In this document: in pieces, positions 10,763-39,187 of the stretch
Position numbering within the stretch: the stretch's first letter is position 1
How the letters are laid out: each line of letters starts with the position of its first letter
Virus record (IMG/VR): IMGVR_UViG_3300037504_000682
Span: 35,176 to 99,175 of that record
Length of the DNA stretch: 64,000 bases
Direction: 5' to 3' (one strand)
Source: a virus
Translations under genes and position numbers: made by a program
Notes under the pieces: generated by a model
The model's input: only the letters and a program-made list of their open reading frames with translations
What the model was told of the DNA's origin: nothing
The model's database searches: none

Positions 10763-10772
10763 GTTGTCTACA

Positions 10773-10792
10773 ATGTATACTGGAGTGTATAT
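10773..10792. promoter_or_regulatory. Operator-like 20-bp dyad, copy 2
   Basis: ATGTATACT-gg-AGTGTATAT. Confidence 0.6.
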
Positions 10793-10809
10793 TTTTAAGG
10801 TTTATCAGG

Positions 10810-10838
10810 TTGACAATATACACTGAATATTATATACT
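10810..10838 (+). promoter_or_regulatory. Near-consensus sigma70 early promoter with overlapping operator copy 3 (10816-10835)
   Basis: TTGACA-17 bp-TATACT; spacer begins ATATACACT. Confidence 0.85.
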
Positions 10839-10886
10839 AGAGATTATAAACACCCGTTAGAAATTCTTCACAGAAAGGACCTTTCG

Positions 10887-11180
10887 ATGGCCTACAATCT
10901 ACCGTTTATCAACGATTATCGAAGTCAACAGCCCGAAGCCGACAGCGCCCTTCCCCAGACCGAGGCCGCCAAGTACGAAGTCGAGTGGCTCACCTGGATG
11001 GAGCGCAAAACGGTCGGCCCCAAGAATTTCAAGGCCACCCTGGCCACCTTCCGGCGGGACTTCGGCCCTCAGACCGACTGGTCCGAAGACTGGTCCGTCC
11101 AACAAGGCGAGACCCTGCTGATCACCGTCGCCCTCCGGGAGCATATCCTGGACTTGTCCGCTCAAGAGAATAGCCAATAA
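10887..11180 (+). CDS. Hypothetical protein
   Basis: First ORF after early promoter, AAGGA RBS. Confidence 0.7.
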   Translation: MAYNLPFINDYRSQQPEADSALPQTEAAKYEVEWLTWMERKTVGPKNFKATLATFRRDFGPQTDWSEDWSVQQGETLLITVALREHILDLSAQENSQ

Positions 11181-11266
11181 AAAAGCCCCACCGGCCGGCG
11201 GGAGTACGGCCGGGTGGGGCTCCTTTAATTGGTGCGAAAGCACCGGAGAACACAAGGAGTATAGCA
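11179..11266 (-). ncRNA. Candidate antisense sRNA unit 1
   Basis: Minus-strand TGCTATACT (11258-11266) facing a GC hairpin + T6 terminator (11179-11221). Confidence 0.45.
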
Positions 11267-19226: not shown

Positions 19227-19532
19227 ATGGTTAAACCTGCTCACCACGTCGAACCAGAGGTTCTGGTCGAAAATCAAACCCACAAAATCTTTGCCAAAGG
19301 TGGCCGGCTATTCAAGATCGAGTATATCCGGGGCCAGGAGCAGGACCGGCCAGAAGACATTATTTTCTGGATTTGGACCGCGAACGGCTGGCGACTTTTT
19401 GACTCCCTGAAGGGTTGGCCTGATCAAGCTATTTATACCCTGGCCGGCCTGATAGTCGAATTGACCGACCAGGCCATTACCGTCTCAGGTTCTGACCATT
19501 CCGTAGAAATCTACAAGGAGCTTTTGCAATGA
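19227..19532 (+). CDS. Hypothetical protein
   Basis: GGAGGAG RBS before ATG 19227. Confidence 0.6.
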   Translation: MVKPAHHVEPEVLVENQTHKIFAKGGRLFKIEYIRGQEQDRPEDIIFWIWTANGWRLFDSLKGWPDQAIYTLAGLIVELTDQAITVSGSDHSVEIYKELLQ

Positions 19533-20338
19533 TCTGCATTTACCACGCCGATTGCCCGGACGGCTTCGGAGCCGCCTGGGTGGTCAACCGCTGGGCCCGG
19601 CAAAATGAGGTATCGGTCAGGTTCATTCCGGCTGCCTACGGCGACGAACCTCCCGACGTGGCCGGCCAGGAGGTGGTCATCGTCGACTTCTGGTATCCCC
19701 GGGACGTCCTCCTGGAGATACACCGCCAGGCCAAAAGCCTGATCGTCCTGGACCACCACGACGGGGCCAGAGAGGCCCTGGCTGGCCTGGAGTTCGTTCG
19801 GGTCGGCGACCAGGCTGGCTGCATGATGGCCTGGGGCCATTTCTTTTACGGCTGCGAGCCGCCGCTCTTTTTGGAGTACATCCAGGAAGGCGACCTGTAC
19901 CGCTGGAAGCTGGATCACTCCCGGGAAGTCTACGCGGCCATCTGTAGCTACCGCCAGGATTTCAACCTGTGGAGCAAGTGGGAGAGCCGGGGCGCGGTCT
20001 ACCGCCTGGCCGAGGAGGGCCGGGCCATTATGCGGGAGCGAAACAACCAGATCGCCAAGCTCGCAAACGGCCCGGTGGTCCGGGTCGAGATCGGCGGCTA
20101 CAACGTGCCGTGCGTCAACGCGCCCCACTTCCTGGCCAGCGATTTGTGCAATCTGCTGGCCGTAGGTGAGCCGTTTGCCGCCAGCTACTGCGACGAGGCC
20201 AACCACCGCCGCTTCAGCCTGCGGGCCACTGCTGCCAGCGGAGTCCACGTTAACCAGGTGGCCCGGCTCTACGGCGGCGACGGCCACGAGCGGGCGGCGG
20301 GATTTACCATCAAGAAACCTGAAATTTTGGGAGGATAA
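19529..20338 (+). CDS. DHH/DHHA1 phosphoesterase (NrnB-like)
   Basis: IYHADCPDGFGAA, IVDF, LDHH, FSLR, GGDGH..AAGF. Confidence 0.85.
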   Translation: MICIYHADCPDGFGAAWVVNRWARQNEVSVRFIPAAYGDEPPDVAGQEVVIVDFWYPRDVLLEIHRQAKSLIVLDHHDGAREALAGLEFVRVGDQAGCMMAWGHFFYGCEPPLFLEYIQEGDLYRWKLDHSREVYAAICSYRQDFNLWSKWESRGAVYRLAEEGRAIMRERNNQIAKLANGPVVRVEIGGYNVPCVNAPHFLASDLCNLLAVGEPFAASYCDEANHRRFSLRATAASGVHVNQVARLYGGDGHERAAGFTIKKPEILGG

Positions 20339-20825: not shown

Positions 20826-21086
20826 ATGGACAATCCCCTTGCCATCAAATGGTCCCCGCTCCAGCGGGCCCAGAACGTAGTGACCAATCTTGAGCAGCGC
20901 GGCCTCCGGATCGACCAGCCTCACCGCAGCGACCTGGTCGCCCTGGTGCTTCACGAGATCACCCAGGCCGAAGAGGAGGCCCGCCGGCAGGAGCGGCGCA
21001 AGATCGCGGCCGAGTGGCTGGTCGAAAGCCTGCCGGCCGACGTACTGCAAATGGCCGCCGAGCGGGTCACCGCTCAGGAGTGGTGA
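20826..21086 (+). CDS. Hypothetical protein
   Basis: AGGAGG RBS, own promoter. Confidence 0.7.
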   Translation: MDNPLAIKWSPLQRAQNVVTNLEQRGLRIDQPHRSDLVALVLHEITQAEEEARRQERRKIAAEWLVESLPADVLQMAAERVTAQEW

Positions 21087-21267
21087 GAAAGGCCTGGGCC
21101 AGTTCGGCCAGCGACCCGGGCCGGATTCCGGCCAGGGTGGCCCGTTCCTGATCGGAGAGGTCGAAGTCCTGGCCGGATCCGGCCGGATCCCCCAGCAGCT
21201 GCCGGCAGAAGGCCGGGTCAACCAGGGCCTGGGCGAATAATTTGGCGAGTTCTCTGCTTGGTTCCAT
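21067..21267 (-). CDS. NHLP-clan (Franean1_4349/Os1348-like) leader-type small protein
   Basis: LFAQALVDPAFCRQLLGDP....FDLSDQERATL. Confidence 0.55.
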   Translation of the reverse strand: MEPSRELAKLFAQALVDPAFCRQLLGDPAGSGQDFDLSDQERATLAGIRPGSLAELAQAFLTTPER

Positions 21268-21296: not shown

Positions 21297-21680
21297 AAAG
21301 AGGCTCTTTTCTGCCGGCCGGGGCGACAAATCAAAAGGCGTTAAATTCAAAATAGGCCGGCTTATTTTGTGACAGCCACCAAGGAAATTACTGGTCGCTA
21401 AATGCAAGATAAGCCGGCCTTTTTGTGTGGTCGTTCGTCAGAAATTATCAGCCGGTAAACCAGGGATAGCGCCAACTAATTTCTCTGGCCACAGGAGAGA
21501 AATAGTGGCGACTAAAGGCGGGCTTATTTCTCTCTCTTGTCCACACGAATTACCGGAGCCTATTCTGGAAATAGCCCAGTTTATTTTCTCCCGGCCACCC
21601 GAGAAAATAACGGCCATTAATCGCCGGTTAAGCCGCTCTATTTTCTCCCGGGCCGGACGAGAAAAATAAACGTTGCAAAG
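21297..21680. repeat. Array A of ~48-bp degenerate dyad elements (6-7 units)
   Basis: Repeated TA-N8-TA-TTTYTC-N~10-12-GAGAAA-TA-N8-TA. Confidence 0.7.
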
Positions 21681-21715
21681 TCGGAACAAACGTGCTACAC
21701 TACTGTCAGCGGCGG
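21673..21715 (+). promoter_or_regulatory. Putative late promoter 1 (packaging operon)
   Basis: TTGCAA-17 bp-TACACT; closely similar to 43760-43802. Confidence 0.7.
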
Positions 21716-21754
21716 GAGTCCAGTGCGGGCTACCCCGCCGCTTACAATTTTAAA

Positions 21755-21796
21755 GGCCCTCGGACACCCCGTCGCCGTCCGAGGGTCGTTTTTTTT
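21755..21796 (+). terminator. Leader terminator/attenuator
   Basis: CCCTCGGAC...GTCCGAGGG + T8. Confidence 0.7.
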
Positions 21797-21802
21797 GTAC
21801 TT

Positions 21803-22396
21803 ATGCCATCACTCCAGGAAATTGCCGCATTTTTAGCCTTCATCGCCCCGGCCGCCGGGGCTGTCTGGCTTTTGATCAGAGAACGGACCACTCAGCGGCT
21901 CAAGGCTGAAATCGAGGCTCAGAACAAGCGGTTGGAGCTGGAGCTTGAGGAGTCGCGCCAGCGGCTGGAGGAGCGCAACAAGCGACTGGAGGCCGAGCTA
22001 GAGAAGGCCCGCCAGCAGCTCGGGGCCGAGATTGACGCCCAGGCCGACCACCGGGAACACGTCCAGAAGCAGTCCGATCTTGAGACTGCCTACCACCTGG
22101 CCGAGGGAGCGGCAGCCCAGCAGGTTATGGCTGAGTTGGTGGCCAACTCCCAGGATAAGCTCGACGACGCCTACGGCTTCATCAGGTCGGACATCAAGGC
22201 CGACCTGGAGCAACTTCAAACGCTCGTTGACGAAATACAGAAACAGCTCTTGTCCTATTACCCGAAGATCGACGAGGTCCCCTCGATCAAATACGAACTC
22301 AGAAACTTCTCCACCCAGTCCCGTCTCCTGGTCAACCTCATTAGAGAGATTTACGAAAAATTATTCAAGGAGCAGTCGGATGAAAAACTGGACTAA
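21803..22396 (+). CDS. Membrane-anchored coiled-coil protein
   Basis: N-terminal TM then heptad-rich helix. Confidence 0.7.
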   Translation: MPSLQEIAAFLAFIAPAAGAVWLLIRERTTQRLKAEIEAQNKRLELELEESRQRLEERNKRLEAELEKARQQLGAEIDAQADHREHVQKQSDLETAYHLAEGAAAQQVMAELVANSQDKLDDAYGFIRSDIKADLEQLQTLVDEIQKQLLSYYPKIDEVPSIKYELRNFSTQSRLLVNLIREIYEKLFKEQSDEKLD

Positions 22397-22934
22397 TCGG
22401 CTGGTCGGGCCAGCAGGAACCGTTTTGATCACTATTGGATATTGCTACCTGTCCACCCTGTGGCCAGACATTATCCCCAGCACTGCCGCTATCCTTTTTC
22501 CGGTTGTCGCCGTCGCCGCTTTTATTAGTGGCTTGCGGGCCGGGCTGGTCGCCGCCCTGTGGACCGGAGCTTACAGCGCCTGGCAGCTGTGGCCGGCCGA
22601 TATTCCCCGGGCGGTGGTCGTTACCGCCAGCGCGGTCGCCCTGGCGGTTGTGGTTGGCGTGCTCAAGCGGCGCTCCCGGCTATCAGACCTGGCTCGCCGC
22701 AAGGCGACCGCGTTCGACGAGGTCAACGGCAATATCCTGCGAATAGGACAGATGCAATCCCGGCTCTTTGAGCTGCTCTCCGGCTGGCGGCACATCCCCG
22801 ATAAAGAAAAGTATCGCCAGGTCGAGATCGTTTACGGAGGCCTGGTTACCCTGGCTACGATGACCGCCGGCTGGCACCAGCTGGCCCGGGAAAAGAAGGA
22901 AGTTCAATCCGGAGGTCCGACAAAGGAGCACTAA
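22380..22934 (+). CDS. Multi-TM membrane protein (DUF4118-like pattern)
   Basis: VVAVAAFISGLRAGLVAALW; about 4 TM segments. Confidence 0.6.
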   Translation: MKNWTNRLVGPAGTVLITIGYCYLSTLWPDIIPSTAAILFPVVAVAAFISGLRAGLVAALWTGAYSAWQLWPADIPRAVVVTASAVALAVVVGVLKRRSRLSDLARRKATAFDEVNGNILRIGQMQSRLFELLSGWRHIPDKEKYRQVEIVYGGLVTLATMTAGWHQLAREKKEVQSGGPTKEH

Positions 22935-23104
22935 GTGGGCGAACGGCTCAACATCCGCCACTCCGGGGTGGGGATGAGGCCGGACCACTCCGGGGTGGCC
23001 CTGGTCTTTCAGCTGTTTCGGCCGGGAATCAAAACCATCGGCGAGCGGCTGGCCGCCCTCGAAGCCGGGGGATAATTTATCTTTGAGCTTTCCAGGGGGA
23101 AGCG

Positions 23105-23767
23105 ATGGCAGTTGAATTAGTTTACGGCGAGCGCAAAGAGCGCGAGACCAAAAAGGCGATCCTGGCCTGCAACGACTACTTGCGGATGGGACCCGGCCGG
23201 AGCTTACAGAAGCTACACGACCGTTACCAGGCCGTATCCGAACCGTTACCACCAACCAGGCGAATTACCACCTTAAAGCGTTGGTCAAAGGATTTTGAAT
23301 GGCAAAAACGGGCCGCTGATTACGAAGCCTATCTTGACCATCAAAAGACCGAAATGGCCGAGCGACGCCGGCGGCAGGCGATGGAGCAGGGCCTAGCCCT
23401 CGACTACGAGCGGGTCACCGTCCTGAAAAACCTGACCTCTCTGCTTCTGGGCGAGATGCTCAAAAAAGACCCGGCTACCGGCAAGTTGATCAACATCTGG
23501 CTCCAGGACGCCAAGCAGATCGGCTCCGGAATTGACGCCGAACGGGTCGACATCGAACACTTCAACGCCGCCATCATTCGGGAGCTGCGCGGCCTGCTGG
23601 ACGACCTGGCCAAAGAGACCGGCGGACGCAAGGAGAAACACGAATTCAGCGGACCGGGCGGCGGGCCGATCAAGACCGAAGACACCACGATGGACGACGA
23701 TGGTCGGGCCCGGCGGATCGTGGAACTACTGACCAAGGTCAAAGGGCGCGTGAGCGACGATGATTGA
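23105..23767 (+). CDS. terS: Terminase small subunit (putative)
   Basis: Directly upstream of TerL; TLKRWS...W..RA and HEFSGPGGGPI tail. Confidence 0.7.
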   Translation: MAVELVYGERKERETKKAILACNDYLRMGPGRSLQKLHDRYQAVSEPLPPTRRITTLKRWSKDFEWQKRAADYEAYLDHQKTEMAERRRRQAMEQGLALDYERVTVLKNLTSLLLGEMLKKDPATGKLINIWLQDAKQIGSGIDAERVDIEHFNAAIIRELRGLLDDLAKETGGRKEKHEFSGPGGGPIKTEDTTMDDDGRARRIVELLTKVKGRVSDDD

Positions 23768-25319
23768 CGAGTGGGAGGTCAGTCAGCTTCAGCAGCATAT
23801 GACCGGCCGGGAGCGGGCCTACCTGGAGGCCTTGCTTTCTGACGAGTTCATTTCGCTCTCGCAATACATCCAGGCCGCCTGGCCCGTGGTCGAGCCGGCC
23901 ACCGACTTCATCTCCAACTGGCATATCGACGCCATCAGCGACCACCTGGAGGCGGTCACCTGGGGCTGGATCAAAAACCTGATCATCAACATCCCCCCGC
24001 GCCATATGAAATCCCTGACCGTCTCTGTCTTCTGGCCGACCTGGGCCTGGACCTGGCGGCCGGAGCTGCGCTGGCTCTTTGCCTCCTACGCCGAGAAGCT
24101 GGCCATCCGGGATAACGTCAAGAGCCGGCGAGTGATCAAATCGCCCTGGTATCAGGCCCGCTGGGGCCACGTCTTTCGGCTGACCGGCGACCAGAACGAG
24201 AAGATGCGCTTTGAGAACGACCGCTCCGGCTACCGGATCGCCACCAGCGTAGGCGGCAGCGCCACCGGCGAGGGCGGCGACATCATCGTGGTCGACGACC
24301 CCCACAAGATGAAGGAGGTCGAGAGCGACCTGATCCGGGAGGGGGTCCTGGACTGGTGGGATGAGACGATGAGCACCCGCCTCAACGACCCCAAGAGCGG
24401 CAATAAGGTGATCCTGATGCAGCGGGGTCACGAACAGGACCTGACCGGCCACGTCCTGGAAAAGATGGAGCAAGGGGGCGAAAGCTACGAGCACCTGTGC
24501 CTGCCGGCCGAGTATGAGCCGACCACCTATGTGACGGCCATCGGCTTTGAAGACCCCCGCACTGAGCCGGGCGAGCTCTTGTGGCCGGATCACTTCGACC
24601 AGGAGGCCATCGACAACCTGAAGATTTCGCTTGGCTCCCGGGCGTCTGCCGCCCAGCTCCAGCAGCGGCCCAGCCCGGCCGAGGGCGACATCTTTAAGAA
24701 AAAATGGTGGCGCTTCTGGATTCCGCCCGGCTCCAACCTGCCGCCTTACCGGATCAAGCTGCCGGACGGCTCTCTCTTTGAGTGCGAGCAAAGGGAGTTG
24801 CCGGCGTTTTTCACCGAGCAGCTCCAGAGCTGGGATATGGCCTTCAAGGACACCAAGTCCAGCGCCTTTGTGGCCGGCCAGGTCTGGGCCCGGCTGGGGG
24901 CCGACAAGTTCCTGCTCGACCAAGAGCGAGATCGGTGGGACTTCCCGGCCACCCTGGCCGCCGTCCGCCGGGTGACCACCCGCCACCCGGCCGCTCACGC
25001 CAAGCTGGTCGAGGATAAGGCCAACGGGCCGGCCGTGATCCAGACCCTGCGCAGCAGTGTCGCCGGCCTAATCGCGGTCAATCCGGAGGGGGACAAAGTC
25101 TCCAGGGCCAACGCCGTGACCCCAGACATCGAGGCCGGCAACGTCTACCTACCCCACCCGGCCATCGCGCCCTGGGTCGACGGCCTGATCGACGAGTGCG
25201 CCTCTTTTCCTAACGGCGCTTTCAGCGACCAGGTCGACACCCTGAGCCAGGGGCTGGTCCGGCTGAAGAAAAACGAGCAGCGGGATCAGAAAAGCAGGCC
25301 CCGCTCCCACAGTTTGTAA
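23760..25319 (+). CDS. terL: Terminase large subunit
   Basis: INIPPRHMKS, VVDDPH, MQRGH, SWDMAFK, EDKANG, FPNG..DQVD. Confidence 0.95.
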   Translation: MIDEWEVSQLQQHMTGRERAYLEALLSDEFISLSQYIQAAWPVVEPATDFISNWHIDAISDHLEAVTWGWIKNLIINIPPRHMKSLTVSVFWPTWAWTWRPELRWLFASYAEKLAIRDNVKSRRVIKSPWYQARWGHVFRLTGDQNEKMRFENDRSGYRIATSVGGSATGEGGDIIVVDDPHKMKEVESDLIREGVLDWWDETMSTRLNDPKSGNKVILMQRGHEQDLTGHVLEKMEQGGESYEHLCLPAEYEPTTYVTAIGFEDPRTEPGELLWPDHFDQEAIDNLKISLGSRASAAQLQQRPSPAEGDIFKKKWWRFWIPPGSNLPPYRIKLPDGSLFECEQRELPAFFTEQLQSWDMAFKDTKSSAFVAGQVWARLGADKFLLDQERDRWDFPATLAAVRRVTTRHPAAHAKLVEDKANGPAVIQTLRSSVAGLIAVNPEGDKVSRANAVTPDIEAGNVYLPHPAIAPWVDGLIDECASFPNGAFSDQVDTLSQGLVRLKKNEQRDQKSRPRSHSL

Positions 25320-25326
25320 CGGACGT

Positions 25327-25536
25327 TTGAAAATGACCGACACACCCCAGGACATCGAAGCCGCGCAGCGCCGCATCCGGGAGCTGGAGGCCGCTCTTGA
25401 CCGGGAGGCCCGCTGGGCCGAGTTGTACCACGACCGCTGGCTTTTGTCCCACGACCGTGGGAACCATAGCATCGACTGGCAGGCGACCAACGACTACCGT
25501 CACCTGATCGGAGGAGAGAATGGCTACATTCGATGA
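25327..25536 (+). CDS. Hypothetical protein
   Basis: Small ORF between terL and portal. Confidence 0.5.
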   Translation: MKMTDTPQDIEAAQRRIRELEAALDREARWAELYHDRWLLSHDRGNHSIDWQATNDYRHLIGGENGYIR

Positions 25537-27106
25537 ACTGACCCTCAAGGACGCCGAGGAGCGTATTCCGGACCGGGGCGAGGATTGGCTAAAGGCCAAC
25601 CGGGCCTACTACCACGGCGACCACTGGCAGGATGGCGACGGCTGGTCCGGCCCGATGCTGGATATGAAACATAAGCTATATAGCCAGATGCTGCTCGAAA
25701 TCCAGCGAGCCTTCGTCTCCAAAAACACCATCGCCGAGGTGGCCGAGAGGCATAGCGCCGGGGTGATCGGCCGGGAGCCGCGCTGGCGGCTGACCGTCCG
25801 CCGGCCGCTGGCCGACGGCGAGGAGCCCACGGCCCAGGAGCAGACCTTGATCGACGAGGCCGAGATGCTGCTTAACGGCTGGTGGGAGGATCGGGGCTGC
25901 CATAAGGTGCTCAGGGAAGCGGCCGAGACGATGCTCCTGGCCAAGCGGGGCTCTCTCAGGCTCTTTGTGCCGCCGGGGCTCCTGGTCGACGGCTTGGTGC
26001 CCCGGGAGCCGGTCGAGGAGGCTATAGGCCGCATCTACCTGCACCATCCGGAGCCGGAGCAGGCGGCCGTGCCCCGGGACCGAAACACGATGCAGGACAT
26101 CGGCATCTACCTCTTTGAGCGCAACAATCAAAAGCTGGCCGAGCTGATCTACCTGGATGGCGACTGGACGGTGATCCGGCTGGCCGAAGCGACCAGCGAC
26201 GAAGGCGAGGAAGAAGAGCAGCCCGAGCCCTGGCGCTTCAACCTGGGTGGCCGGCTGACGATGTTTGAGATGAATCGCCGGCTGCTTATTACCGAGCAGG
26301 TCCGGCAAAACCAGAAGCTGCTTAACCTGGCGCTCACGATGCTTCAGCGCAACGTGATCCAGGGCGGCTTTCTGGAACGCACGTTTTTTAATGCCCAGCT
26401 GCCCGGCAAAGATATACCCGATCCGGACCGGCCGGGGGAAACCAAGTTCGTACCGGAGCCCCTGCACGTCGGGCCCGGGGCTACGAACTTCCTCTCCGGC
26501 GTGGTGACCGAAGACGATCAGGGTAACACAGTGGTGGCAACTCCTTCGGTGGTCTACCGGAACCCGGTGCCGGTAGAAACCTTTGCCGAGACCAAGCGGG
26601 AGGCCTACAGCTGCATCCTGGAGGAGGTTGACCAGCTGCACGTCCTGATCACCGGCGACGCCACGGCCAGCGGTGAGAGCCGCAAACAGGCCCAGACCGA
26701 CTTCCGGCAGTCCCTGCTGGACAGCAAGGATCAACTGGAGAAGGCCACCGCTTGGCTCCTGGAGACGGTACTGGCGATGGCGGCCGAATTCTCCGGCCAG
26801 GCCGGCCGGTACGAGGAGCTCCGGGTTGACGCCGAGTGCCGGGTCGACCTGGGTCCCATCTCGGGCGACGAGCAGCGGGTGGCCAGGGAGCTGGTCGAGG
26901 CTCAGATCATCTCGAAGCGAACGGCAATGAGCCGGGTGGGGGTGGACGACGCCGACGCCGAGGCCGGCCAGATCGCTACCGAGCAGGAGGAGAGCAGCCA
27001 AAGGCAGCAGCAGAGCCTGGCCACGGCCGTACTGAACGCCCAGCGGCAGCTGGCCGGCGGGCAGCAGTCGACCGGCCTGGAGCAGCCGGAGGGAGAGGAG
27101 GAGTAG
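25520..27106 (+). CDS. Portal protein
   Basis: 528 aa after terL; AYYHGDH, ASGES, IISKRTAM patterns of SPP1 gp6-like portals. Confidence 0.8.
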   Translation: MATFDELTLKDAEERIPDRGEDWLKANRAYYHGDHWQDGDGWSGPMLDMKHKLYSQMLLEIQRAFVSKNTIAEVAERHSAGVIGREPRWRLTVRRPLADGEEPTAQEQTLIDEAEMLLNGWWEDRGCHKVLREAAETMLLAKRGSLRLFVPPGLLVDGLVPREPVEEAIGRIYLHHPEPEQAAVPRDRNTMQDIGIYLFERNNQKLAELIYLDGDWTVIRLAEATSDEGEEEEQPEPWRFNLGGRLTMFEMNRRLLITEQVRQNQKLLNLALTMLQRNVIQGGFLERTFFNAQLPGKDIPDPDRPGETKFVPEPLHVGPGATNFLSGVVTEDDQGNTVVATPSVVYRNPVPVETFAETKREAYSCILEEVDQLHVLITGDATASGESRKQAQTDFRQSLLDSKDQLEKATAWLLETVLAMAAEFSGQAGRYEELRVDAECRVDLGPISGDEQRVARELVEAQIISKRTAMSRVGVDDADAEAGQIATEQEESSQRQQQSLATAVLNAQRQLAGGQQSTGLEQPEGEEE

Positions 27107-27514
27107 GATGACTTCATACACGGACCGGTATCCAAAGAGATGGGAGGACCGACCGGAGGGGCGGCAGACAAACATTTTCTTGTGTCCGTTTTGCCAGAGG
27201 GAGCGGTGTGATTGTTTAGAAACGATGATATACCCTGCACGAGATTGGCCCGGCAAGGGGACCGATGCAAAAATCAACATCACCACCAGAGAAGATACCG
27301 GCAGCGCGAGTACAACATCAGGAAGGTGAAAGGGGTGCTATGCGGAAAGTCTCGACCGTTCCGGTCCGGAAGGTGGGCCGGTTTGAGCAGGTTGGCGGGC
27401 CGAGGGAGGAATGATGAACATCTGGCTGATTGATCTCATCTGGCGGATGAAGCGCAGCCGGGAGCGGCGATATGATCACTCCTGGACCGAGCTAATAAAA
27501 CTCACAAGGAGAGT

Positions 27515-28294
27515 TTGGCCGTGAAATACATTTTAGATGGCAGGTTTTGGGTGAGCTGGCAAAACCTGAATAGAAAGTTCGACCGGCTCGGAAATCGGAT
27601 CAAGCAAGGCTCCGGCTTCTGGCACGGCCGGGCCTGGATACACAAGTCTGAGGGTAGATTTTCTGCCAAGGTTGAGTGGAACTTCAAATCTAGCTTTTGT
27701 TTCATCGGCCTATCGGTTGGTGGCGACGAGAACGACCTTGGGTTCCATGTCGCCCTGCCGCCGGTGGCCATTTGGGTGAGTGTCGCCGGCATTGTGCCGC
27801 GACGCTGGGTCAAAAACCTCGATTGGTGGTATCGACCCTGGCCGAAAGAGGTCGACCTCACCGTTTACGCCGGCAGCCTGTGGTGGAAACTGTGGCGCAG
27901 CGAAAGCGACTGGATGGACGACGCCACTGGCTGGGAAGGCAACTTCAACTTCGTTGATTTCTTTTTGGGCCGGGATAAATGCCGCCACGAGACGCTTTAC
28001 GAGATCGACGAGATGGAGGTCCGGCTCAAAGACGGCGATTATCCGGTCTCGATCCGTATTTTCCGCAGCTACTGGGACCGGCCACGCTGGCTCACCCGCT
28101 CCATTGTTCGGGCCACGGTTACATCCCTGGACGAAAGCGGCGTTCCCACTGGTGACGAAAAGTTCGGAAGCGACAACAACACCATCTCCTCCACCTTCCC
28201 GGCTTCAACCATCCGGGAGGCGGTCGAGAAATTCTGCGAAGACATCGAGATCGCCCGGCAGAGATATGGGTATTACCGGAGGGTGGGCTCGTGA
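27515..28294 (+). CDS. Hypothetical Trp-rich protein
   Basis: 259 aa, AAGGAG RBS. Confidence 0.65.
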   Translation: MAVKYILDGRFWVSWQNLNRKFDRLGNRIKQGSGFWHGRAWIHKSEGRFSAKVEWNFKSSFCFIGLSVGGDENDLGFHVALPPVAIWVSVAGIVPRRWVKNLDWWYRPWPKEVDLTVYAGSLWWKLWRSESDWMDDATGWEGNFNFVDFFLGRDKCRHETLYEIDEMEVRLKDGDYPVSIRIFRSYWDRPRWLTRSIVRATVTSLDESGVPTGDEKFGSDNNTISSTFPASTIREAVEKFCEDIEIARQRYGYYRRVGS

Positions 28295-28650
28295 AGCGAA
28301 ACCGTAGAGCCGAAGCCAAAAAGAAAGCCCGCCAGCAGGCCCGCCGCAAGGAGGTCGAGGCCCTGCTTATGGCGATGGGCCAGGCGGCCGTAGAGGTTCT
28401 GGTCACCCACTTCGACTTCACCGAGGCCCAGGCCGTACACTTCCTGAAGTTCGTCCGGCAGCGACTGCCCGACATTCGCCCTGTCCGGCCGGTGCTGAGC
28501 CACCTCGACCGGTTGGAGACCACGGCCCAGCGCTTTGGGGTGGCCGGGATGCAGGTCTTGACCGGCATCTACGGCCTGGAGCAGGCTCAGGCCGATGACT
28601 GGTTGCAAAGAATGGTCGAGGCCGGCCGGCAGATGGACAAGGCGGCGTGA
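28291..28650 (+). CDS. Hypothetical protein
   Basis: Coupled ORF. Confidence 0.6.
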   Translation: MKRNRRAEAKKKARQQARRKEVEALLMAMGQAAVEVLVTHFDFTEAQAVHFLKFVRQRLPDIRPVRPVLSHLDRLETTAQRFGVAGMQVLTGIYGLEQAQADDWLQRMVEAGRQMDKAA

Positions 28651-29060
28651 TGAAAACCGTCCCCGAGTGGGTTATCGACTGTATCACCGAATGGAAATCC
28701 ACCCTCCTGCTCCAGGAGTGGACTTTCGAGACCAGTTTGAGCCCCCACCCCGGCGGTGACGGATCCGGCCATACCAGCGCCCATATTACCCTGTGGCCGG
28801 ACATCCGCCGGGCCCAGCTGGAGATCAGAGACGACATCCCCGATGAATCAACCCGCGAGTGGCGAAAGACCATCATCCACGAGCTGGTTCACGTCCGACT
28901 GGCCGGGATCACAGAGCTGGTCAACCAGGAGCTGATCCCCGAACTGCCCGGCAACGCCCAGGAGATTGCGGCGGCCGTGTTTCGCCGTGAGGTCGAGCCG
29001 GTGGTTGAACTGCTGGCCGGTATTCTGTTGGAGCTATCCGGTGATCCAAACAACGACTGA
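28647..29060 (+). CDS. HExxH metallopeptidase-like protein
   Basis: TIIHELVH. Confidence 0.6.
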   Translation: MMKTVPEWVIDCITEWKSTLLLQEWTFETSLSPHPGGDGSGHTSAHITLWPDIRRAQLEIRDDIPDESTREWRKTIIHELVHVRLAGITELVNQELIPELPGNAQEIAAAVFRREVEPVVELLAGILLELSGDPNND

Positions 29061-29227
29061 CGGCCGTGAAATCCGAATAGCCAACCACTGCCCCTACTGC
29101 CAGCTTGATTCCGGCGGCCGGCATGCCCCCGACTGCCCCCTCCTCCGGCCGGCCTGGACAAACTCTCCCCCTGCTCCACCCCCGCCCTCTACATTATTAA
29201 ACGCACGTTTGGAATTCAAGGCCGACA

Positions 29228-32200
29228 ATGCCGGATCCGCTAGTCGTTCAACTCGCTAACCAATTTCGGGAGCAGCTCGACGGCCGGGCCAATGAGGCCA
29301 TCGAGCAGATGGCCGGCGAGTGGCTCAAGGTCGAGGAGCGCCTGAAGGCTGACATCGAGCTTTTGGCCGCCGAACTGGCCGCCGCGCCCGGCGAGGTCAA
29401 GCTCAGCCCGATGACCGAGACGGTCAAGCTGATGCAGGAGGCCGGCTACGCGCCGGATTACATCCTCCAGCTCCTGGCCACCCAGGGCATTTTCGAGATA
29501 CCGGAGGTGCCCCAGCCCCAGGCCAAGCAACTCAAGGACTGGCAGCTGGCCCAGCTGCGGCGCTACGTCCGCCTCCTGGTCCAAGTGCAGGCCGAGATCG
29601 CCCGCTTCACCGGCCAGACGGCCGCCCCGATTATCGAGCAGCTCCAGGCCGACGCGGCCTATGAGGGTATTCAAAACGCCCTGACGATGATCGAAGCCTC
29701 GGTGTCAAGTGCCGGCGGCAGTACGGTCGATCTCGCCTTTGACCAGCTCAATACCGCCGCCGTGGAGAACATCGTGGCTATCGCCGGGGCCGGCCGGCCC
29801 CTGGGCGACCTGCTCCAGGCCGCTTATCCCCTGTCAGCCAACGGGATTACCAATGAGCTCGTCTACGGCACAGCCAAGGGCCAGAACCCGCGCAAAACAG
29901 CCCGGTCGATTATTGAAAATGGCCTGGCCCAGGGGCTCAACCATATGCTACTGGTGGCCAGAGACCAGCAGGTTAGAGCGGTCAGGGAGTCAGCCCGGCA
30001 GCAGTACGCCCGGGCCGGCATCGAGGGCTACCGCCGGCTGGCCGCCAAGCAGGCTCGCACCTGCCTGGCCTGCCTGGCCCTGGACGGCACCATCTGGCCC
30101 ACCTCGGAGCTGATGGCGCTTCATCCCCAAGATAGATGCTCGATGCTTCCGCTGGTGCCCGGCTTTGAGCCCGTTCAGTTTGAGACCGGCCCCGAGTGGT
30201 TCATGAAGCAGCCGGCTTCGGTCCAGAAGGAAATGATGGGCCCGGGCAAGTATGAGCTTTGGAAGGCCGGCGGCTTCGAGTTTGACCAGCTGGCCACGAT
30301 CAAGCCCAATCGCACCTGGGGGCCGAGCGCCCAGGTGACCACCCTCAAGGACCTGCAGCGCGGCCGGGGCGGATTCCGGCCGCCGGGCTCACCGACCCCG
30401 GCCCAACCCCGACCACCTACTGGACCGGTCGCCCCTGGCCCTTCTCCCCTGCCCGGCCTGGATCACGAGGCCCTGATGATCAAGGACCTGCACCAGCTGG
30501 GGCCGGATTGGGGCGAGCAGACCAACTGGAAAAACCAGAGCTACGGCGGAATCCTCTTTGACGACCAGGGTCGGGTGCTGCTGCGAAAGCCGACCGGCGA
30601 ATTCGGCGGCTACGCCTGGACTTTCCCCAAGGGCAAGATGAACAACTCCAAGGAGCACCCTGTCCAGACGGCCTTAATGGAAGTCGAGGAGGAGACCGGC
30701 CACGACGGCCAGATCATCGGCCTGGTGCCGGGCCAGTTCAAGGGAGACACCGGCCAGACCAACTTCTTCCTGATGAAATCCAACAGCTGGGACCGGTCGT
30801 TGATGGATGACGAGACCGAGCGGTTGGTCTGGGCTACGCCGGAGGAGGCCAAGAAGCTCATACGGCAGGGGGCCAACGAGAAGGGGGTCAAGCGGGACCT
30901 GGCCGTCCTGGAGGCGGCCACGAAGGCCCACGGCGACCTGCTGAGTGGGGAGGCGACCAACGACTACCTGTTCGACCAGAAGGGGCCGGTGGTGATCACC
31001 AACTTTAGTCAGCCACTCCTGGATCACATCGAAAAGCAGGCGGGGCAGATCAGCCACCAGAACAAAATGGAGCTACTTGTAACCAAGGCTGACATTGGTA
31101 AAAGCGGCACCAAGGGCATAGTAGTTCTGGATAGCGACGGGAGCCTGAAGGCTCTGGCCACTTATGATGACAAGTCCAGTGACTATGTATATGTTCATAA
31201 CGCCTGGGGCGATACAGTTACCAACGGAAAAACCCTGCTTATAAACTTGGGGCAGATAGCCGCTAAGGACGGCAGGGGTATTATCTTGACCCCCAAAGCA
31301 AGCAAGGTCAAACAATCCGCACCAAAAGTTGGATACAAGTCAACCGACGATGGCGGGCCGGTCACCCCGGGCTCGTTTTACCTTGAATCTGACTGGATGA
31401 AGGAATGGAAAAAGGCCCCGACCAAGTTCAAGCCGCCCAGTCCCCGGCCGCTTCCGCCTGAGCCCAAGGGGTACGACCGTAAGACCATCCCTCCAACTGA
31501 CGCCAAGCTAACGGGTGAGATAAAAGAGCTGGCCCAGGCGGACTTCGGCGATCCCCTGGCCTTGAAGGGAGCCCAGGTGGCGGCTGATAAAATCGCCGGC
31601 GGCCAGAAGGGGTTTATGTACGCCTCCGACACCGGCAAGCTGAAGGGGGTCATTTCTTACGAGGAGCAGGGTTCGATCATCAAGGTCGGCTCGGCCGGCT
31701 TCAGCGACTTCGAGACCAACCTGGCGGGCCTCCAGGACGTGGTGAAAATAGCCAAGCAAGCCGGCAAGGACTTCGTTACCTTCGCCCCGAAGGGCCCCAT
31801 CTTGGACCAGTACCTCAAATGGGGCTTTGAGGTCAACACCGCTTACGGCAACGGCGCTTCCCTAATTCTCAAGAAGCAGAACTTCGATGAGTGGCTGGGT
31901 GACCCGGCCAAATACGGCAAGGAGCACCGCTCCTCGCTGGAGCCCACCCCCTCCGGCAGCTACAGCCCGCCACCCCAGCCGACCAGCAGCGGTTACAAGG
32001 CCACGCCCCGGCCCCGGGACCCTGACCCCCTGCCGGATCCGGCTCCCCTGCCCGACCCTGACGATTTCCCGCCGGACCCGGCCGTGCTGACCGTCGTCCG
32101 TAAACTGGGTGGGTCGACCGGGGCCGAGCTGGTCGAGGACGTGGTCACCGGCCGGCGCTACGTCCGCAAGCGAGGCGGTAGCCCTGACCACATCCTGGAG

Positions 32201-33592
32201 GAGGTTCACGCCGATGCGGCCTACCAGGCGGCCGGGGCTAACGTGCCCCGCTTCAAGTTGTACGACACCCCCGCCGGCCCGGTCAAGTTGGCCGAGTTCA
32301 TCGAGGGCGAGGTGCTGGGCGACGTGCTAAAGAAGGGCGGGGCCCGGGCCAAGAAGGCAAGAGAGGCGATGAAGGAGAATTTTGGGGCCGACGCGCTGTT
32401 TGGCAATCGGGACGTGATAGGCGCGGACTACGACAACGTCCTGGTTGATAAGTCTGGCCGGGTCTGGCGCATCGACAATGGCGGGTCGTTCAGGTTCCGG
32501 GCAATGGGCGAGCGAAAGACCGACTGGGACGATTACCCTCTTGAGTTCTGGTCGATGCGAGACAAGCAATACAGGCAGGTTCACGATTTGTTTGGCGACC
32601 TGGACTTTTATTCCATCTCCGACCAGGTAATGGAGCTAAAGCGCCGGCGGGAGGCAATCCTGGCCGCCGTGCCGGAGGAGGTCCGGGACGTGCTGGATCG
32701 CCGGCTGCGAAACATCACGGATATGGCCACCACCGGCCAGGCGATGCAGGGCGATGATTTCCAGGTCGACTATGCCGACGGAATGAGCCGGCAGCGAATG
32801 GAGATGCGCAAGGGCGGGCTGACTGATCAGATGCCCCTGGCGATGGGGATTAAGGGATACGAGAAGGCCAGCGCCAAGAAGCGTTACAAAGGGGCTGTGA
32901 ATACCAGCGCGGTCTACGACGAACAGGGCCGACAGTTCGACCGGCTGCGGGGTGGGAACTCACTGATCGGCCAACTTAAGGGCTTTGTGAACAAGGCCGG
33001 CGGTAATTATGACCTGGTCGTCAAGTGGGCCAGCGAACAGGCCGGCAGTAGCTGGTCGCCGGCATCTCAGGCGCTGAAATACCACGTGGTCCAACAGATG
33101 AACAAGGCCGAAAAGCTGTTCTGGTGGCGAGATGGCAAATCAAAAGCCGAGAAGTATTATAAATCCATAGCCAGCGATAAGGCTGCCTATGATAAAACCT
33201 TCCAGGCCCTGCACGCCTTTACCCAGGAGATGTTGACCAGAATGGACCTGCCGAATAAGACAGAAAGAGATACAATCTTCTTGCTCAGATCGGAGGCGTC
33301 CAATATTTTGAGCAGGAACGGGATAAAACCGGGAGACACAGGGGCCACGATGCCCCGGGGGGCCATTGAGAGTACATCTGTTTTTGGAGGGGTGTACATC
33401 GGGGGCTCGGAGCTAACTCGACAAGAGGTCCCTTTGCATCGGATAATCGCGCCGTATTTTATGGAAAGGGTCCCAGGCAGCGGGGTAAGTATGTTCTACG
33501 GTGACAACGAAAATGAATTCGTGGTCATTCTCGGGGGCGACCTGCCATTCGACTACGTTGGCAGAAATAACGGGTCGGTTGTCATTGACTGA
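29228..33592 (+). CDS. MuF head morphogenesis protein fused to Nudix, GNAT-like, kinase-like and ART-like modules
   Basis: MuF RTCLACLALDG...HPQDRC; Nudix FPKG...EVEEETG; kinase LGGSTGA...YVRK...GNRD....DN...RIDNGG; C-term R...STS...ENE. Confidence 0.8.
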   Translation: MPDPLVVQLANQFREQLDGRANEAIEQMAGEWLKVEERLKADIELLAAELAAAPGEVKLSPMTETVKLMQEAGYAPDYILQLLATQGIFEIPEVPQPQAKQLKDWQLAQLRRYVRLLVQVQAEIARFTGQTAAPIIEQLQADAAYEGIQNALTMIEASVSSAGGSTVDLAFDQLNTAAVENIVAIAGAGRPLGDLLQAAYPLSANGITNELVYGTAKGQNPRKTARSIIENGLAQGLNHMLLVARDQQVRAVRESARQQYARAGIEGYRRLAAKQARTCLACLALDGTIWPTSELMALHPQDRCSMLPLVPGFEPVQFETGPEWFMKQPASVQKEMMGPGKYELWKAGGFEFDQLATIKPNRTWGPSAQVTTLKDLQRGRGGFRPPGSPTPAQPRPPTGPVAPGPSPLPGLDHEALMIKDLHQLGPDWGEQTNWKNQSYGGILFDDQGRVLLRKPTGEFGGYAWTFPKGKMNNSKEHPVQTALMEVEEETGHDGQIIGLVPGQFKGDTGQTNFFLMKSNSWDRSLMDDETERLVWATPEEAKKLIRQGANEKGVKRDLAVLEAATKAHGDLLSGEATNDYLFDQKGPVVITNFSQPLLDHIEKQAGQISHQNKMELLVTKADIGKSGTKGIVVLDSDGSLKALATYDDKSSDYVYVHNAWGDTVTNGKTLLINLGQIAAKDGRGIILTPKASKVKQSAPKVGYKSTDDGGPVTPGSFYLESDWMKEWKKAPTKFKPPSPRPLPPEPKGYDRKTIPPTDAKLTGEIKELAQADFGDPLALKGAQVAADKIAGGQKGFMYASDTGKLKGVISYEEQGSIIKVGSAGFSDFETNLAGLQDVVKIAKQAGKDFVTFAPKGPILDQYLKWGFEVNTAYGNGASLILKKQNFDEWLGDPAKYGKEHRSSLEPTPSGSYSPPPQPTSSGYKATPRPRDPDPLPDPAPLPDPDDFPPDPAVLTVVRKLGGSTGAELVEDVVTGRRYVRKRGGSPDHILEEVHADAAYQAAGANVPRFKLYDTPAGPVKLAEFIEGEVLGDVLKKGGARAKKAREAMKENFGADALFGNRDVIGADYDNVLVDKSGRVWRIDNGGSFRFRAMGERKTDWDDYPLEFWSMRDKQYRQVHDLFGDLDFYSISDQVMELKRRREAILAAVPEEVRDVLDRRLRNITDMATTGQAMQGDDFQVDYADGMSRQRMEMRKGGLTDQMPLAMGIKGYEKASAKKRYKGAVNTSAVYDEQGRQFDRLRGGNSLIGQLKGFVNKAGGNYDLVVKWASEQAGSSWSPASQALKYHVVQQMNKAEKLFWWRDGKSKAEKYYKSIASDKAAYDKTFQALHAFTQEMLTRMDLPNKTERDTIFLLRSEASNILSRNGIKPGDTGATMPRGAIESTSVFGGVYIGGSELTRQEVPLHRIIAPYFMERVPGSGVSMFYGDNENEFVVILGGDLPFDYVGRNNGSVVID

Positions 33593-33652
33593 GTTTGCAA
33601 CGCTCGTTACAAACTCGAAATCGCCGGCCGGCTGTGATATACTGAGGGTACG

Positions 33653-33973
33653 ATGAAAATCACCGATGCCAGATGGACCGAAGCCAGCAACGGCCTGCCG
33701 CTGCTGAAACTGAAAATCAACGGAGTAGAGGTCATCATCGACCCGGCCCAGAAAGCGATTTCTGAAGGAGTAGTGTTTTTGACGACGCCGCCCGAACATC
33801 TTGACCTGCTGCCGGAGATTACCATCCCGGGGGACAAGAGCGACAACCGGGGCTCGATCACCACCAACCAGGCCACAAGAGACAGGAGGATACTCAGGCT
33901 GACCAAGGAGTTCCTGGAGGCCGCCCAGAAGGACGATTTCGAGCCGGGGCCGGTGGCCCTGGAGGAAGAGTAA
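33653..33973 (+). CDS. Small acidic protein, candidate immunity protein for the MuF effector
   Basis: Directly downstream of MuF fusion; own TGaTATACT (-10 near 33635-33643); followed by terminator. Confidence 0.55.
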   Translation: MKITDARWTEASNGLPLLKLKINGVEVIIDPAQKAISEGVVFLTTPPEHLDLLPEITIPGDKSDNRGSITTNQATRDRRILRLTKEFLEAAQKDDFEPGPVALEEE

Positions 33974-33999
33974 AGCCGGGGGCAAGCCCGGCTTTTTTT
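33973..33999 (+). terminator. Intrinsic terminator
   Basis: AAGCCGGG...CCCGGCTT + T run. Confidence 0.8.
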
Positions 34000-34007
34000 A
34001 TTCCTTA

Positions 34008-34290
34008 GAGAAAATGGATGGCCTTATTTGAGAATAGGCCGACTTGTTTTGTCTGGCCTGGCGGGAAAAATAGGCCGGCTTATAGTGGTCGCTATTTCTC
34101 GGGTGGCCGGAGAGAAATAGAGAGGGTTATAGTTCGACTTGTTTGTCTCGGGTCGCCCGAGAAATTAGCGGAGCTTGTTTGGGAATGAAGGGGCGTTAAT
34201 TTGTGGCCGGGTGGAGAGAAATTAACGATCGGTAAAGGGAGGATAGAGTAGCTTGTTTTATCTGGTCACCAGGGCCTGGCGACCAGAGTT
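34008..34290. repeat. Array B of ~48-bp degenerate dyad elements (about 5 units)
   Basis: Same TA-N8-TR / TTTYTC...GAGAAA grammar as 21297-21680. Confidence 0.7.
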
Positions 34291-34292
34291 TA

Positions 34293-34339
34293 GAACGCGT
34301 GTTCAAAACTGTACAGCGGACTCCTCGGTATGGTAAAAT
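34293..34339 (+). promoter_or_regulatory. SOS-box-like dyad and extended -10 upstream of CRISPR array
   Basis: GAAC-GCGT-GTTC at 34293-34304; TGgTAAAAT at 34331-34339. Confidence 0.55.
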
Positions 34340-34373: not shown

Positions 34374-34587
34374 CTATTCCCCACACGCGTGGGGGTGAAC
34401 CGAGAACCCGCTGCGGCCGGATGAGCAGGAATCAGCTATTCCCCACACGCGTGGGGGTGAACCGGGCCAGCAGCTGGCCGGGGCGGCCTGGGCCAAGCTA
34501 TTCCCCACACGCGTGGGGGTGAACCGGGGTCCCCGCTTTTGGCCAGTTCGGTCGCGAACTATTCCCTACATACGTGGGGGCGGCGGG
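34374..34587 (+). CRISPR. Type I-E-like mini CRISPR array: 3 identical repeats + 1 degenerate, 3 spacers, no cas genes in window
   Basis: CTATTCCCCACACGCGTGGGGGTGAACCG (29 nt) at 34374, 34436, 34498; degenerate copy at 34559; spacers 33, 33, 32 nt. Confidence 0.95.
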
Positions 34588-36176: not shown

Positions 36177-36863
36177 AACCAAAGTGCCAGCCGAGCAATA
36201 CTTGATTGACTACAGAGCCGTTCACGGCGAATATCCAGAATGGTATTATGAGCAACAGGCCGATTGTTGGTGCTGTGCCTACGGGTGCAGCGACCATCAG
36301 GGCAATCTGTTGCCCAACGCCTGCGACTGCTGTACGGGGCAGTGCGATTGCCCGTGTCACCAAAAGCAGCTTGAGCCCAGCAGGGTAGAAGCCGCCCCAC
36401 GAGACAGGGACCCCGGCCAGGAATAAATGCCGGCACCGCCAGCCGCACGGCGACCGGACGCCTACCGCAGGGGGCTTGACCTGCGGCGTAATTCTACCCG
36501 TTCACATAGATAGCAGTGTAGCACCGAGAGCGACGGCCGGGAGAGGTGCGGCCCCGGCCGTCTTGAGGCCAACCGGGAGCATTATCCCGTCGTCGGCTGG
36601 CATACCTGACAGAAACGTATGCTGGTTGTTATCCTCCCAACCAATAGGATGAGGTTGGCAAGCGTTCGGAACAGTTTGCGCGGCCGGAAAAGGAACTCCC
36701 GTTTTAAGTGCCTGTGACGGATACAGACCACCCAGTTATGGCGTTCTGTGATAAAAACGCCAGAAACCAAAACGGCCGCCCTGTGACCACCGAAGCCCCG
36801 CGCGGCGCGCGGGGTCAGATGGAGGTAGGTGGCGCGGGGCGGCCCATCAGAAGGAGAGGCTTA

Positions 36864-38885: not shown

Positions 38886-39187
38886 CAGTAACCGTATCGC
38901 TCAACAGGGATTACAAAATCTTCCCTATCGGCGGCAATATGCCCGGCCGGGAATGGGTCGACTTTTGGCCGACCTTCATCCCCCTCAAGTCCACTCAGGG
39001 TATCTGGGGTGAAATGTCGGAGCCGCCCCGGGATGGAGACGTTATCGCCGCCGATATGGAGTCCGGCCGGCGGGCCTTGTTTGTCGTTCACGGTATGAGA
39101 AGCCTTGATCCGCCCGACTTTTTTTGTGAAGCCTCATTTGTCGGCTACGAGGACGATAACGAGCTGCCGGAATCGGAGGCCAAATGA
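38882..39187 (+). CDS. Hypothetical protein
   Basis: Coupled ORF. Confidence 0.55.
   Translation: MTVTVSLNRDYKIFPIGGNMPGREWVDFWPTFIPLKSTQGIWGEMSEPPRDGDVIAADMESGRRALFVVHGMRSLDPPDFFCEASFVGYEDDNELPESEAK

Follow-up and report, generated by a model that had tools for sequence, protein, structure and literature searches.

Two arrays of phased dyads beside late-type promoters of an uncultured phage: candidate platforms for cooperative protein binding

Introduction

What are two long, non-coding arrays of imperfect palindromes doing on either side of the packaging operon of a phage? The question is raised by a 64,000-bp stretch of DNA, hereafter the window, which comprises positions 35176-99175 of the IMG/VR record IMGVR_UViG_3300037504_000682, from an uncultured phage. 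A preliminary description of this DNA had pointed to tandem repeats at 21297-21680 and 34008-34290 (coordinates are those of the window unless marked "record"). We refer to the two sets of repeats as arrays A and B. The record as a whole measures 99,175 bp, with an estimated completeness of 96%. To our knowledge, very little is known of how phages control their genes in Dehalococcoidia-like Chloroflexota, where the host of this phage is likely to lie. Here, we describe the architecture of the arrays and propose, tentatively, that they are sites of cooperative protein binding that control the promoters beside them. Our statements on function are all drawn from this one genome.

Two arrays far beyond chance

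The claim that both regions consist of non-coding tandem repeats is borne out, with the limits and unit starts given in Table 1. The sequence TTTCTC-N8-13-GAGAAA has four exact matches (21480, 21585, 21642, and 34095), against 0.01 expected; all four lie inside the arrays and there are none elsewhere in the 99,175-bp record. Taken singly, GAGAAA occurs seven times and TTTCTC five times in the arrays, where 0.12 would be expected for each. One word, ATAGGCCGGCTTAT, had been reported as common to both arrays, and it is indeed found exactly at 21352 and 34070; when up to three mismatches are allowed, 10 of its 20 matches are inside the arrays. Local alignment of array A with array B gives scores of 34 in direct and 52 in reverse-complement orientation, compared with a mean of 17.5 and a maximum of 24 for shuffled sequences, and array A aligns with its own reverse complement with a score of 67. 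A profile built from ten units (nhmmer) recovers only array units from the 99-kb record and, at E <= 10, has zero matches in 203 related loci (2.35 Mb). The two arrays are thus real and far beyond chance.

No credible open reading frame (ORF) covers either array, since the variable unit lengths break every frame, and the GC content of the array regions is 46-50%, against about 61%. Beyond motif-level words, with 17 and 16 identical bases, no identity between arrays A and B was found, and the units are only about 56% identical to one another. Because the arrays have just such words in common and their units have diverged to this extent, the words and the spacing described below look maintained rather than recently copied.

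Unit anatomy and an 11.5-bp lattice

Each unit carries a 28-31-bp imperfect palindrome, P1, of the form T(A/G)TTT(T)sTs-N10-12-sAGAAA(A)T(A/T)A, whose centre is GC-rich and often GGCC, together with one or two extra A/T patches. Its arms are less regular than the TTTYTC/GAGAAA pairs first reported: just four dyads have them exactly, and in about half of the units the left arm is TTT(T)GTG or GTC. A second palindrome, P2 (AAAATAGGCCGGCTTATTTT in its best copy), has its T-tract in common with P1. Besides the best copy of P2 (Table 1), there is an inverted one at 21405-21424, and a 17-bp core of P2 recurs unchanged at 34067-34083. The eight-base segments between A/T steps had been described as variable and not complementary. 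This does not hold for those that form P2, so the segments are not all unrelated.

Nor is the repeat a uniform unit of about 48 bp, as had been supposed. Unit lengths are 36, 46-48, or 55-59 bp, the start-to-start spacings being 58, 56, 58, 48, 57, and 57 bp in array A and 46, 48, 47, 59, and 55 bp in array B, plus one 36-bp step. These lengths correspond to three, four, or five whole steps of one lattice. The A/T patches follow that lattice, with a step of 11.5 bp, and not the 10-bp pairs of TA/TG steps proposed earlier. The A/T spectrum peaks at 11.5 bp in array A (power 7.1) and at 11.75 bp in array B (3.3). The array windows show the strongest A/T periodicity of the genome, the next window outside the arrays reaching 2.27, and no window in about 2.3 Mb of related loci exceeds 2.9. 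For the 27 A/T patches of array A, the phase resultant is 0.77 at 11.5 bp versus 0.11 at 10.5 bp; for the patches of array B, the corresponding values are 0.46 and 0.06. The underlying regularity is stronger than the preliminary description had it.

The arrays also have a polarity. The word GCTT(A/G)TTT is found on the + strand in both, and CTTGTTT occurs four times on the + strand and never on the - strand; these polar words place the two arrays in direct orientation. Asymmetric dyad centres (GGCCAC) face either way.

Probable sites in double-stranded DNA

The preference for protein sites in double-stranded DNA over RNA hairpins, expressed at the outset, is supported. In units A2, A3, B2, and B5, a left arm TTT(T)GTG/GTC faces an unchanged GAGAAA/GGGAAA, which puts G opposite G or A, and the A/T patches keep their register in units whose arms have changed. 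Of the 13 dyads, five fold better than shuffled sequences and six no better, the latter without pairing. No Rfam family was found over either array. Given these uncompensated arm changes, the absence of an Rfam family or ORF over the arrays, and the start of array B directly after an intrinsic terminator, function in double-stranded DNA is favoured.

Promoters, boxes, and gene layout

Array A ends at the late promoter of the packaging operon, the A-tract of its last unit (21662-21670) abutting the -35 of TTGCAA-17-TACACT, and array B runs from the terminator of that operon to the promoter of a phage-borne mini-CRISPR (clustered regularly interspaced short palindromic repeats); both placements had been noted correctly (Table 1). 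The arrays had also been said to bracket the packaging module. Geometrically they do, and the arrangement is better put by saying that each array is directly upstream of the promoter of a rightward late unit. Boxes of the GAAC-N4-GTTC type (Cheo/LexA-like) at both promoters suggest that both are under direct SOS control.

The palindromic -35 of the CRISPR promoter, TGTACA, also fits a leftward promoter, TGTACA-17-TAAACT (34287-34315, - strand), that would read into array B, and this candidate has the same -10 as the other late promoter of the contig. A third array at that other promoter was looked for and is absent. Enrichment of GGCC as a methylation switch was considered and dropped, as GGCC is equally frequent genome-wide.

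The ORF map was based on GC content at third codon positions, with PHROG and Pfam matches (Table 1). The region of array A is a divergent intergenic space, owing to a leftward gene for a 66-aa protein of the NHLP clan. An ORF at 20890-21240, which might be taken for the gene beside array A, is a wrong-frame artefact. The 66-aa gene is convergent with an 86-aa ORF at 20826-21086, and an IMG/VR search found no viral relatives of it. Small ORFs upstream of the two arrays were compared as possible paralogues, and the comparison gave just a marginal 30-residue match (E 0.015). On the 3' side of the packaging leader, the order is two membrane or coiled-coil proteins, TerS, TerL, portal, a 1454-aa MuF protein, a 106-aa ORF, and the terminator. 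The mini-CRISPR is followed by an accessory block of about 10 kb with a methyltransferase, a second integrase (39184-40146), and a gene resembling phosphoadenosine phosphosulfate (PAPS) reductase; within it, an Rfam DUF3800-VIII RNA matches at 36775-36843 (+ strand; 48.1 bits, gathering score 40.2).

In the left 35 kb of the record there are another TerL, unrelated to the first (28% identity), and another MuF-like gene (record 7398-8699 and 10361-11221), a paralogous DHH gene precedes a second late leader there, and a 256-bp sequence at record 28013-28268 is repeated with 95% identity at the right end of the contig (record 98920-99175). The record may, then, be two tandem elements or a chimeric assembly instead of one phage.

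Table 1. Features of the window, in order of position. Start and end are window coordinates; strand is given where assigned.
Feature	Position	Strand	Remarks
Helicase gene	2-2257	leftward	ORF map
DnaC-like loader gene	4799-5704	leftward	ORF map
Orphan 153-aa protein with canonical AT-hook KRRGRPPK	7268-7729	-	Beside the integrase-side leftward genes
Integrase	8332-9237		ORF map
DHH phosphoesterase	19529-20338	+	Near end of rightward early block; two small ORFs follow
66-aa Os1348-family NHLP-clan protein gene	21067-21267	-	NF038399, 40.2 bits (cut-off 40)
Array A	21305-21672		7 units, starting at 21305, 21363, 21419, 21477, 21525, 21582, 21639
Best P2 copy, CAAAATAGGCCGGCTTATTTTG	21348-21369		T-tract also belongs to the next dyad
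Late promoter TTGCAA-17-TACACT, TG extension	21673-21701	+	Heads the packaging operon
LexA-like box GAACAAACGTGC	21684-21695		In the spacer of the packaging-operon promoter
Packaging-operon leader	21708-21797	+	Hairpin, then terminator hairpin with T8 run; sequence reading
terS	23105-23767		Small terminase; ORF map
Intrinsic terminator of the packaging/MuF operon	33972-33995	+	Strong; directly before array B
Array B	33999-34292		5-6 units, starting at 33999, 34045, 34093, 34140, 34197, 34254
GC-rich 13-1-13 palindrome TCTGGTCACCAGG/CCTGGCGACCAGA	34261-34287		Last unit of array B; -17.3 kcal/mol, z -3.7
Perfect GAAC-N4-GTTC box	34293-34304		At the end of array B, just upstream of the CRISPR promoter -35
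Mini-CRISPR promoter TGTACA-18-TAAAAT, extended -10 (TG)	34310-34339	+	
Type I-E-like mini-CRISPR, phage-borne	34374-34528	+	Read from the promoter that array B adjoins
Major head protein	45588-46700		Tail genes follow

Relatives and host

Relatives were sought with TerL in IMG/VR, JGI metagenomes, and GTDB genomes, the best being 63% identical. In the loci compared, with TerL identity of at most 63%, there is no dyad cluster with the same words, no 11-12-bp A/T lattice, and no match to the unit profile. TerL relatives with 71-75% identity (P0002-P0008) come from Logan assemblies only and are outside this comparison. A scan of IMG/VR with a 14-base dyad pattern gave, among the matches listed, chance matches only, one with a more specific 22-base pattern gave zero matches, and blastn against GenBank phages gave none. 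Two viral contigs among the pattern matches, L100 and L159, were tried as relatives of the arrays and proved to carry unrelated repeats. The second of them has at 560-990 a dense iteron field, TTTGTCCCT/AGGGACA with 46-63-bp spacing, that is probably an origin or an operator array.

Some distant TerL relatives have repeats of their own. In one (L244, 5655-5720), GTAACGTTAC palindromes recur every 21 bp inside a terS-like ORF, and in another (L288, 7310-7395) four 22-bp tandem repeats (GCTTGTGCTCGAGGAATGAGCC) lie 2.6 kb upstream of TerL; either may be a signal of the pac type, that is, a site where packaging starts. A contig of a Clostridia metagenome-assembled genome (L293), with a TerL 53% identical, has a seven-copy repeat of about 73-bp spacing at 2816-3254, 7 kb upstream, probably a CRISPR array that adjoins the prophage or lies inside it.

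The repeat of the mini-CRISPR gives an indication of the host. It differs by 0-3 mismatches from type I-E repeats of several genomes of the class Dehalococcoidia. In one of them it is identical to a single repeat (L336 in G263:C11, 1480-1560), which sits at the junction of a different CRISPR array and an I-E array whose other repeats differ by two bases; in four further genomes of the class the repeats are 2-3 mismatches away. The host class is, therefore, likely Dehalococcoidia, and a host among the Chloroflexota would agree with the NHLP-clan gene and with the LexA box of the Cheo type. An earlier suggestion, that the arrays are a decoy for a host protein, is not supported, and neither is a host repeat: the motif has one match in five candidate hosts and is at background level, unclustered, in 401 genomes of the class. 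Among the genomes searched, then, it appears to be neither a host repeat nor a common host regulon site, the true host being perhaps unsampled. The host CRISPR leader was examined as a source of the array, and the host leaders have none. Two Dehalococcoidia-class genomes (G113 and G131; e.g., contigs L346 and L348) contain a dispersed hairpin, TTTCTCCCA-N4-TGGGAGAAA, in nine and six copies, respectively (control, 0-1); this repeat has no relation to those of the phage.

Comparison with known systems

The nearest parallel is found in phage phi29. Dimers of protein p4 recognise four imperfect inverted repeats, CTTTTT-N15-AAAATG, located between the early and the late promoters, the target being 5'-AACTTTTT-N15-AAAATGTT-3' with an essential G at +/-13 and a central A-tract (PMC3100819, PMC1904284). 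Protein p6 polymerises on the DNA, its monomers contacting the minor groove every 12 bp in phi29, or 11 bp in GA-1, and arranges it in a right-handed superhelix (PMC10899789). Together, p4 and p6 form a right-handed nucleoprotein structure in which early promoters are repressed and the late promoter is activated (PMC3100819, PMC1904284, PMC10899789).

Like p4 sites 1-4, which with the p4-p6 nucleoprotein hairpin lie between promoters A2c/A2b and late A3, the arrays consist of tandem imperfect inverted repeats of about 28 bp, bounded by a T-tract on one side and an A-tract on the other, and the non-coding control region that they occupy stops at a late promoter. The geometry is almost the same, CTTTTT-N15-AAAATG there and TTTT-N16-AAAA (T4-N16-A4, 28 bp) here. 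Recognition by p4 is largely of A-tract shape, and the cooperative complex remodels more than 100 bp. There are differences as well. The phage units, TATTTTCTC-N10-GAGAAAATA, have outer bases TA, no G at +/-13, and a GC-rich centre (often GGCC). There are four sites in phi29, while here there are five to seven in each of two arrays 12.7 kb apart. A further difference is that there is no p4 homologue, and the host is Chloroflexota-like, not Bacillus. With respect to the phi29 placement of sites between divergent early and late promoters, over -35 elements, the picture is mixed: array A is placed between a leftward gene and the late promoter, its last A-tract abutting the -35, and array B follows a terminator without a divergent gene. 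As for p6, the 11.5-bp A/T lattice falls between the 12 bp of phi29 and the 11 bp of GA-1, although here the likeness is at the level of sequence; p6 sites have no specific words and lie at genome ends, whereas dyad words overlie the lattice here, and no p6 is encoded. Judged from sequence, the arrays do not belong to the phi29 p4 operator set: the words differ and neither p4 nor p6 is encoded.

Other repeated sites resemble the arrays in part. Lambda cosB (R3-R2-R1 plus IHF) and SPP1 pacL/pacR are repeated sites on bent DNA upstream of terS, but they cover about 100-250 bp at a single locus by terS, whereas array A lies 1.4 kb upstream of it and array B after the module. The plasmid centromeres parC of R1 (two sets of five 11-bp repeats), parC1/parC2 of pB171, which flank parAB, and the omega heptad arrays of pSM19035, upstream of three promoters, are phased repeats over promoters and occur as more than one array per replicon, wrapped by small dimeric proteins that regulate transcription. 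Their repeats, however, are 6-20 bp and contiguous, with the gene for a partition NTPase adjacent, and no ParA/ParB-type gene was found here. Enterobacterial bacterial interspersed mosaic elements and repetitive extragenic palindromes (BIME/REP) are tandem imperfect palindromes of mixed orientation at operon ends, bound by gyrase or IHF; they exist in hundreds of copies dispersed over the host chromosome, whereas the phage motif is confined to two places and is not dispersed in candidate hosts.

A proposed cooperative platform at late promoters

We tentatively favour the view that each array is a platform for cooperative protein binding or wrapping that controls the adjacent late-type promoter, in the manner of the p4/p6 switch of phi29. 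Such a platform was among the functions first suggested, and it is supported by its fit to the long-range 11.5-bp A/T lattice. The putative binder would most likely be encoded by the phage and read both sequence and shape. The arrays probably represent, in this lineage, a variant of an element of known type: regulator sites repeated in tandem on shaped DNA at the late promoters of phages.

The analysis establishes the architecture of the arrays, their statistical significance and confinement to two places, their placement with respect to promoters and the terminator, and the lack of RNA-type compensation; that a protein binds and wraps the arrays, and in which direction it would regulate, are inferences. 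Dimers would bind the 28-bp dyads, with T-tract and A-tract half-sites about two helical turns apart, and the same dimers, or a second minor-groove binder, would contact the extra A/T patches. One 11.5-bp lattice accommodates all patches across 290-390 bp. Since this lattice is longer than the 10.5-bp helical repeat, the wrap would be expected to be a right-handed superhelix, as in the phi29 p6 complex. The complex would stop at the -35/UP region of a promoter with an extended -10 and a LexA-like box; given this end point, it would either keep the promoter silent in the lysogen or pass an activator to RNA polymerase at a late stage of infection. The two complexes may, in addition, pair with each other, so that the 12.7-kb packaging operon is looped out.

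Several observations weigh against this proposal. No binder was identified: homologues of p4, p6, HU/IHF, Lsr2, and ParB were not found in the 99-kb record, where searches with PF05464 (p4) and PF17548 (p6) gave no match at E <= 10, and among about 50 ORFs of the window compared with at least one of Pfam, PHROGs, and NCBIfam (each library was run on a different subset of selected ORFs), there is no confident DNA-binding domain, a weak AT-hook in one ORF being the only hint. The left 35 kb of the record, in turn, yields two matches to HTH_3, both weak. It is tempting to consider the AT-hook protein of Table 1 as a binder of the phased A/T minor grooves. This is speculative, and the protein is an orphan, without a homologue among 5.8 billion proteins, for which the structural model is all-helical and of low confidence. 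Comparative support is lacking as well, for the closest relatives compared (TerL identity of at most 63%) have no such array. The other late promoter of the contig (record ~3140), which has the same leader design and directly follows the paralogous DHH gene, has no array either; late promoters of this type can, therefore, do without one. The distance from the dyad centre to the transcription start differs between the arrays, at about -55 for A7 and about -72 for B6. Finally, transcripts of whole arrays would fold well, a point taken up below.

A bolder version of the proposal, which we regard as unlikely, is that the arrays nucleate a phage nucleoprotein filament of a kind not described before. 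A protein specific for the dyads, acting alone or together with a minor-groove partner of the AT-hook type, would wrap about 300-400 bp in a right-handed sense on the 11.5-bp lattice. The two tracks would pair over 12.7 kb, bringing the packaging operon and the CRISPR under one architectural, SOS-linked switch.

Alternative explanations

The main rival is that array A, perhaps with array B as a secondary site, is a pac site, where a TerS oligomer recognises repeated sites on bendable DNA and starts headful packaging. TerS rings have been proposed to wrap DNA, array A heads the packaging operon at a short distance from terS, and the closest characterised TerL relatives include that of Listeria phage B054 (38% identity), of a terminase group that packages by the headful mechanism; lambda cosB and SPP1 pacL/pacR are, likewise, multipartite, bent terminase sites. 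However, a single site would not be expected to consist of two arrays 12.7 kb apart; between array A and terS there are two genes as well as a terminated leader, array B goes with the CRISPR promoter, and no comparable array accompanies the second, unrelated TerL of the contig. We consider a pac site unlikely. A somewhat weaker case can be made for intrinsically shaped DNA with no dedicated binder, in which the phased A/T patches would make the tract superhelical or anisotropically flexible; it would draw a general host protein (gyrase or a nucleoid protein) or, between heavily transcribed operons, serve as a topological buffer or UP-like element, as BIME/REP do. No base-specific word is as well conserved as the lattice, array B lies in a BIME-like position at the 3' end of an operon, and the proximal A-tract of array A is where an UP element would be. 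Such a view would have to accommodate words far above what composition predicts, among them GAGAAA and the identical cores of P2 (17 bp) and of a dyad (16 bp), and a motif that is not a dispersed repeat in candidate hosts; it seems to us improbable. More doubtful still is the idea that the arrays are a decaying tandem duplication without function, as the low identity of the units, the greater degeneracy of the distal units of array A, and the absence of an array from every compared relative might suggest. Against it, the same words and lattice have been kept in two arrays with no long common identity, and the unit lengths differ by whole lattice steps, while neutral indels would break phase coherence over 390 bp.

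If the arrays acted as RNA, they would be multi-hairpin leaders or non-coding RNAs, with array A as the long 5' leader of the leftward NHLP gene and array B read leftward from the promoter with the palindromic TGTACA -35. The whole-array folds have z-scores of -5.46 and -4.78, and the candidate leftward promoter at 34315 is suitably placed. Strong z-scores, however, are expected of any tandem palindromic DNA, the stems are weak and A-U rich, at least four units have uncompensated arm changes, nearly half of the dyads fold no better than shuffled sequences, no Rfam family matches, and no convincing promoter is directed into array A. This leaves an RNA function very improbable, a little below the decaying duplication. 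The two remaining explanations we hold to be the least probable of all, and about equally so. Two-site replication origins exist, and a pair in the style of SPP1 oriL/oriR or P4 ori/crr would agree with iteron-like repeats in DNA richer in A/T than its surroundings; against this, the genes for the helicase and the DnaC-like loader lie at a distance of 15-30 kb, DnaA boxes are no more frequent than expected (5 versus 5.5), and the cumulative GC skew does not turn at either array. Sites for excision or inversion of the module by the second integrase, or for partition, had been suggested too. P2 resembles a core site, with short inverted arms around GCCGGC, and that integrase, a tyrosine recombinase, is encoded 5 kb downstream of array B. 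The arrays, however, are direct repeats with at most 17 identical bases and no sign of rearrangement, and the phage could not survive the loss of its packaging module. In favour of a centromere, the 11-bp iterons of R1 parC surround a promoter; neither ParB_N nor AAA_31 was found in the record, and a search for StbA_N (ParM), whose controls were silent, tells neither for nor against.

Implications

The pair of arrays is unique so far and statistically extreme. In practical terms, the arrays offer a long, regular DNA bait for a regulator that would time both the packaging genes and the CRISPR of the phage. The finding would be an ordinary one if the arrays turned out to be simply bent DNA or a pac site. 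If, on the other hand, the filament exists, it would be a p4/p6-like solution that evolved independently in a temperate phage of Chloroflexota, and if the lattice reflects a right-handed wrap, the arrays would provide a second, independent example of the rare DNA architecture of the phi29 p6 type.

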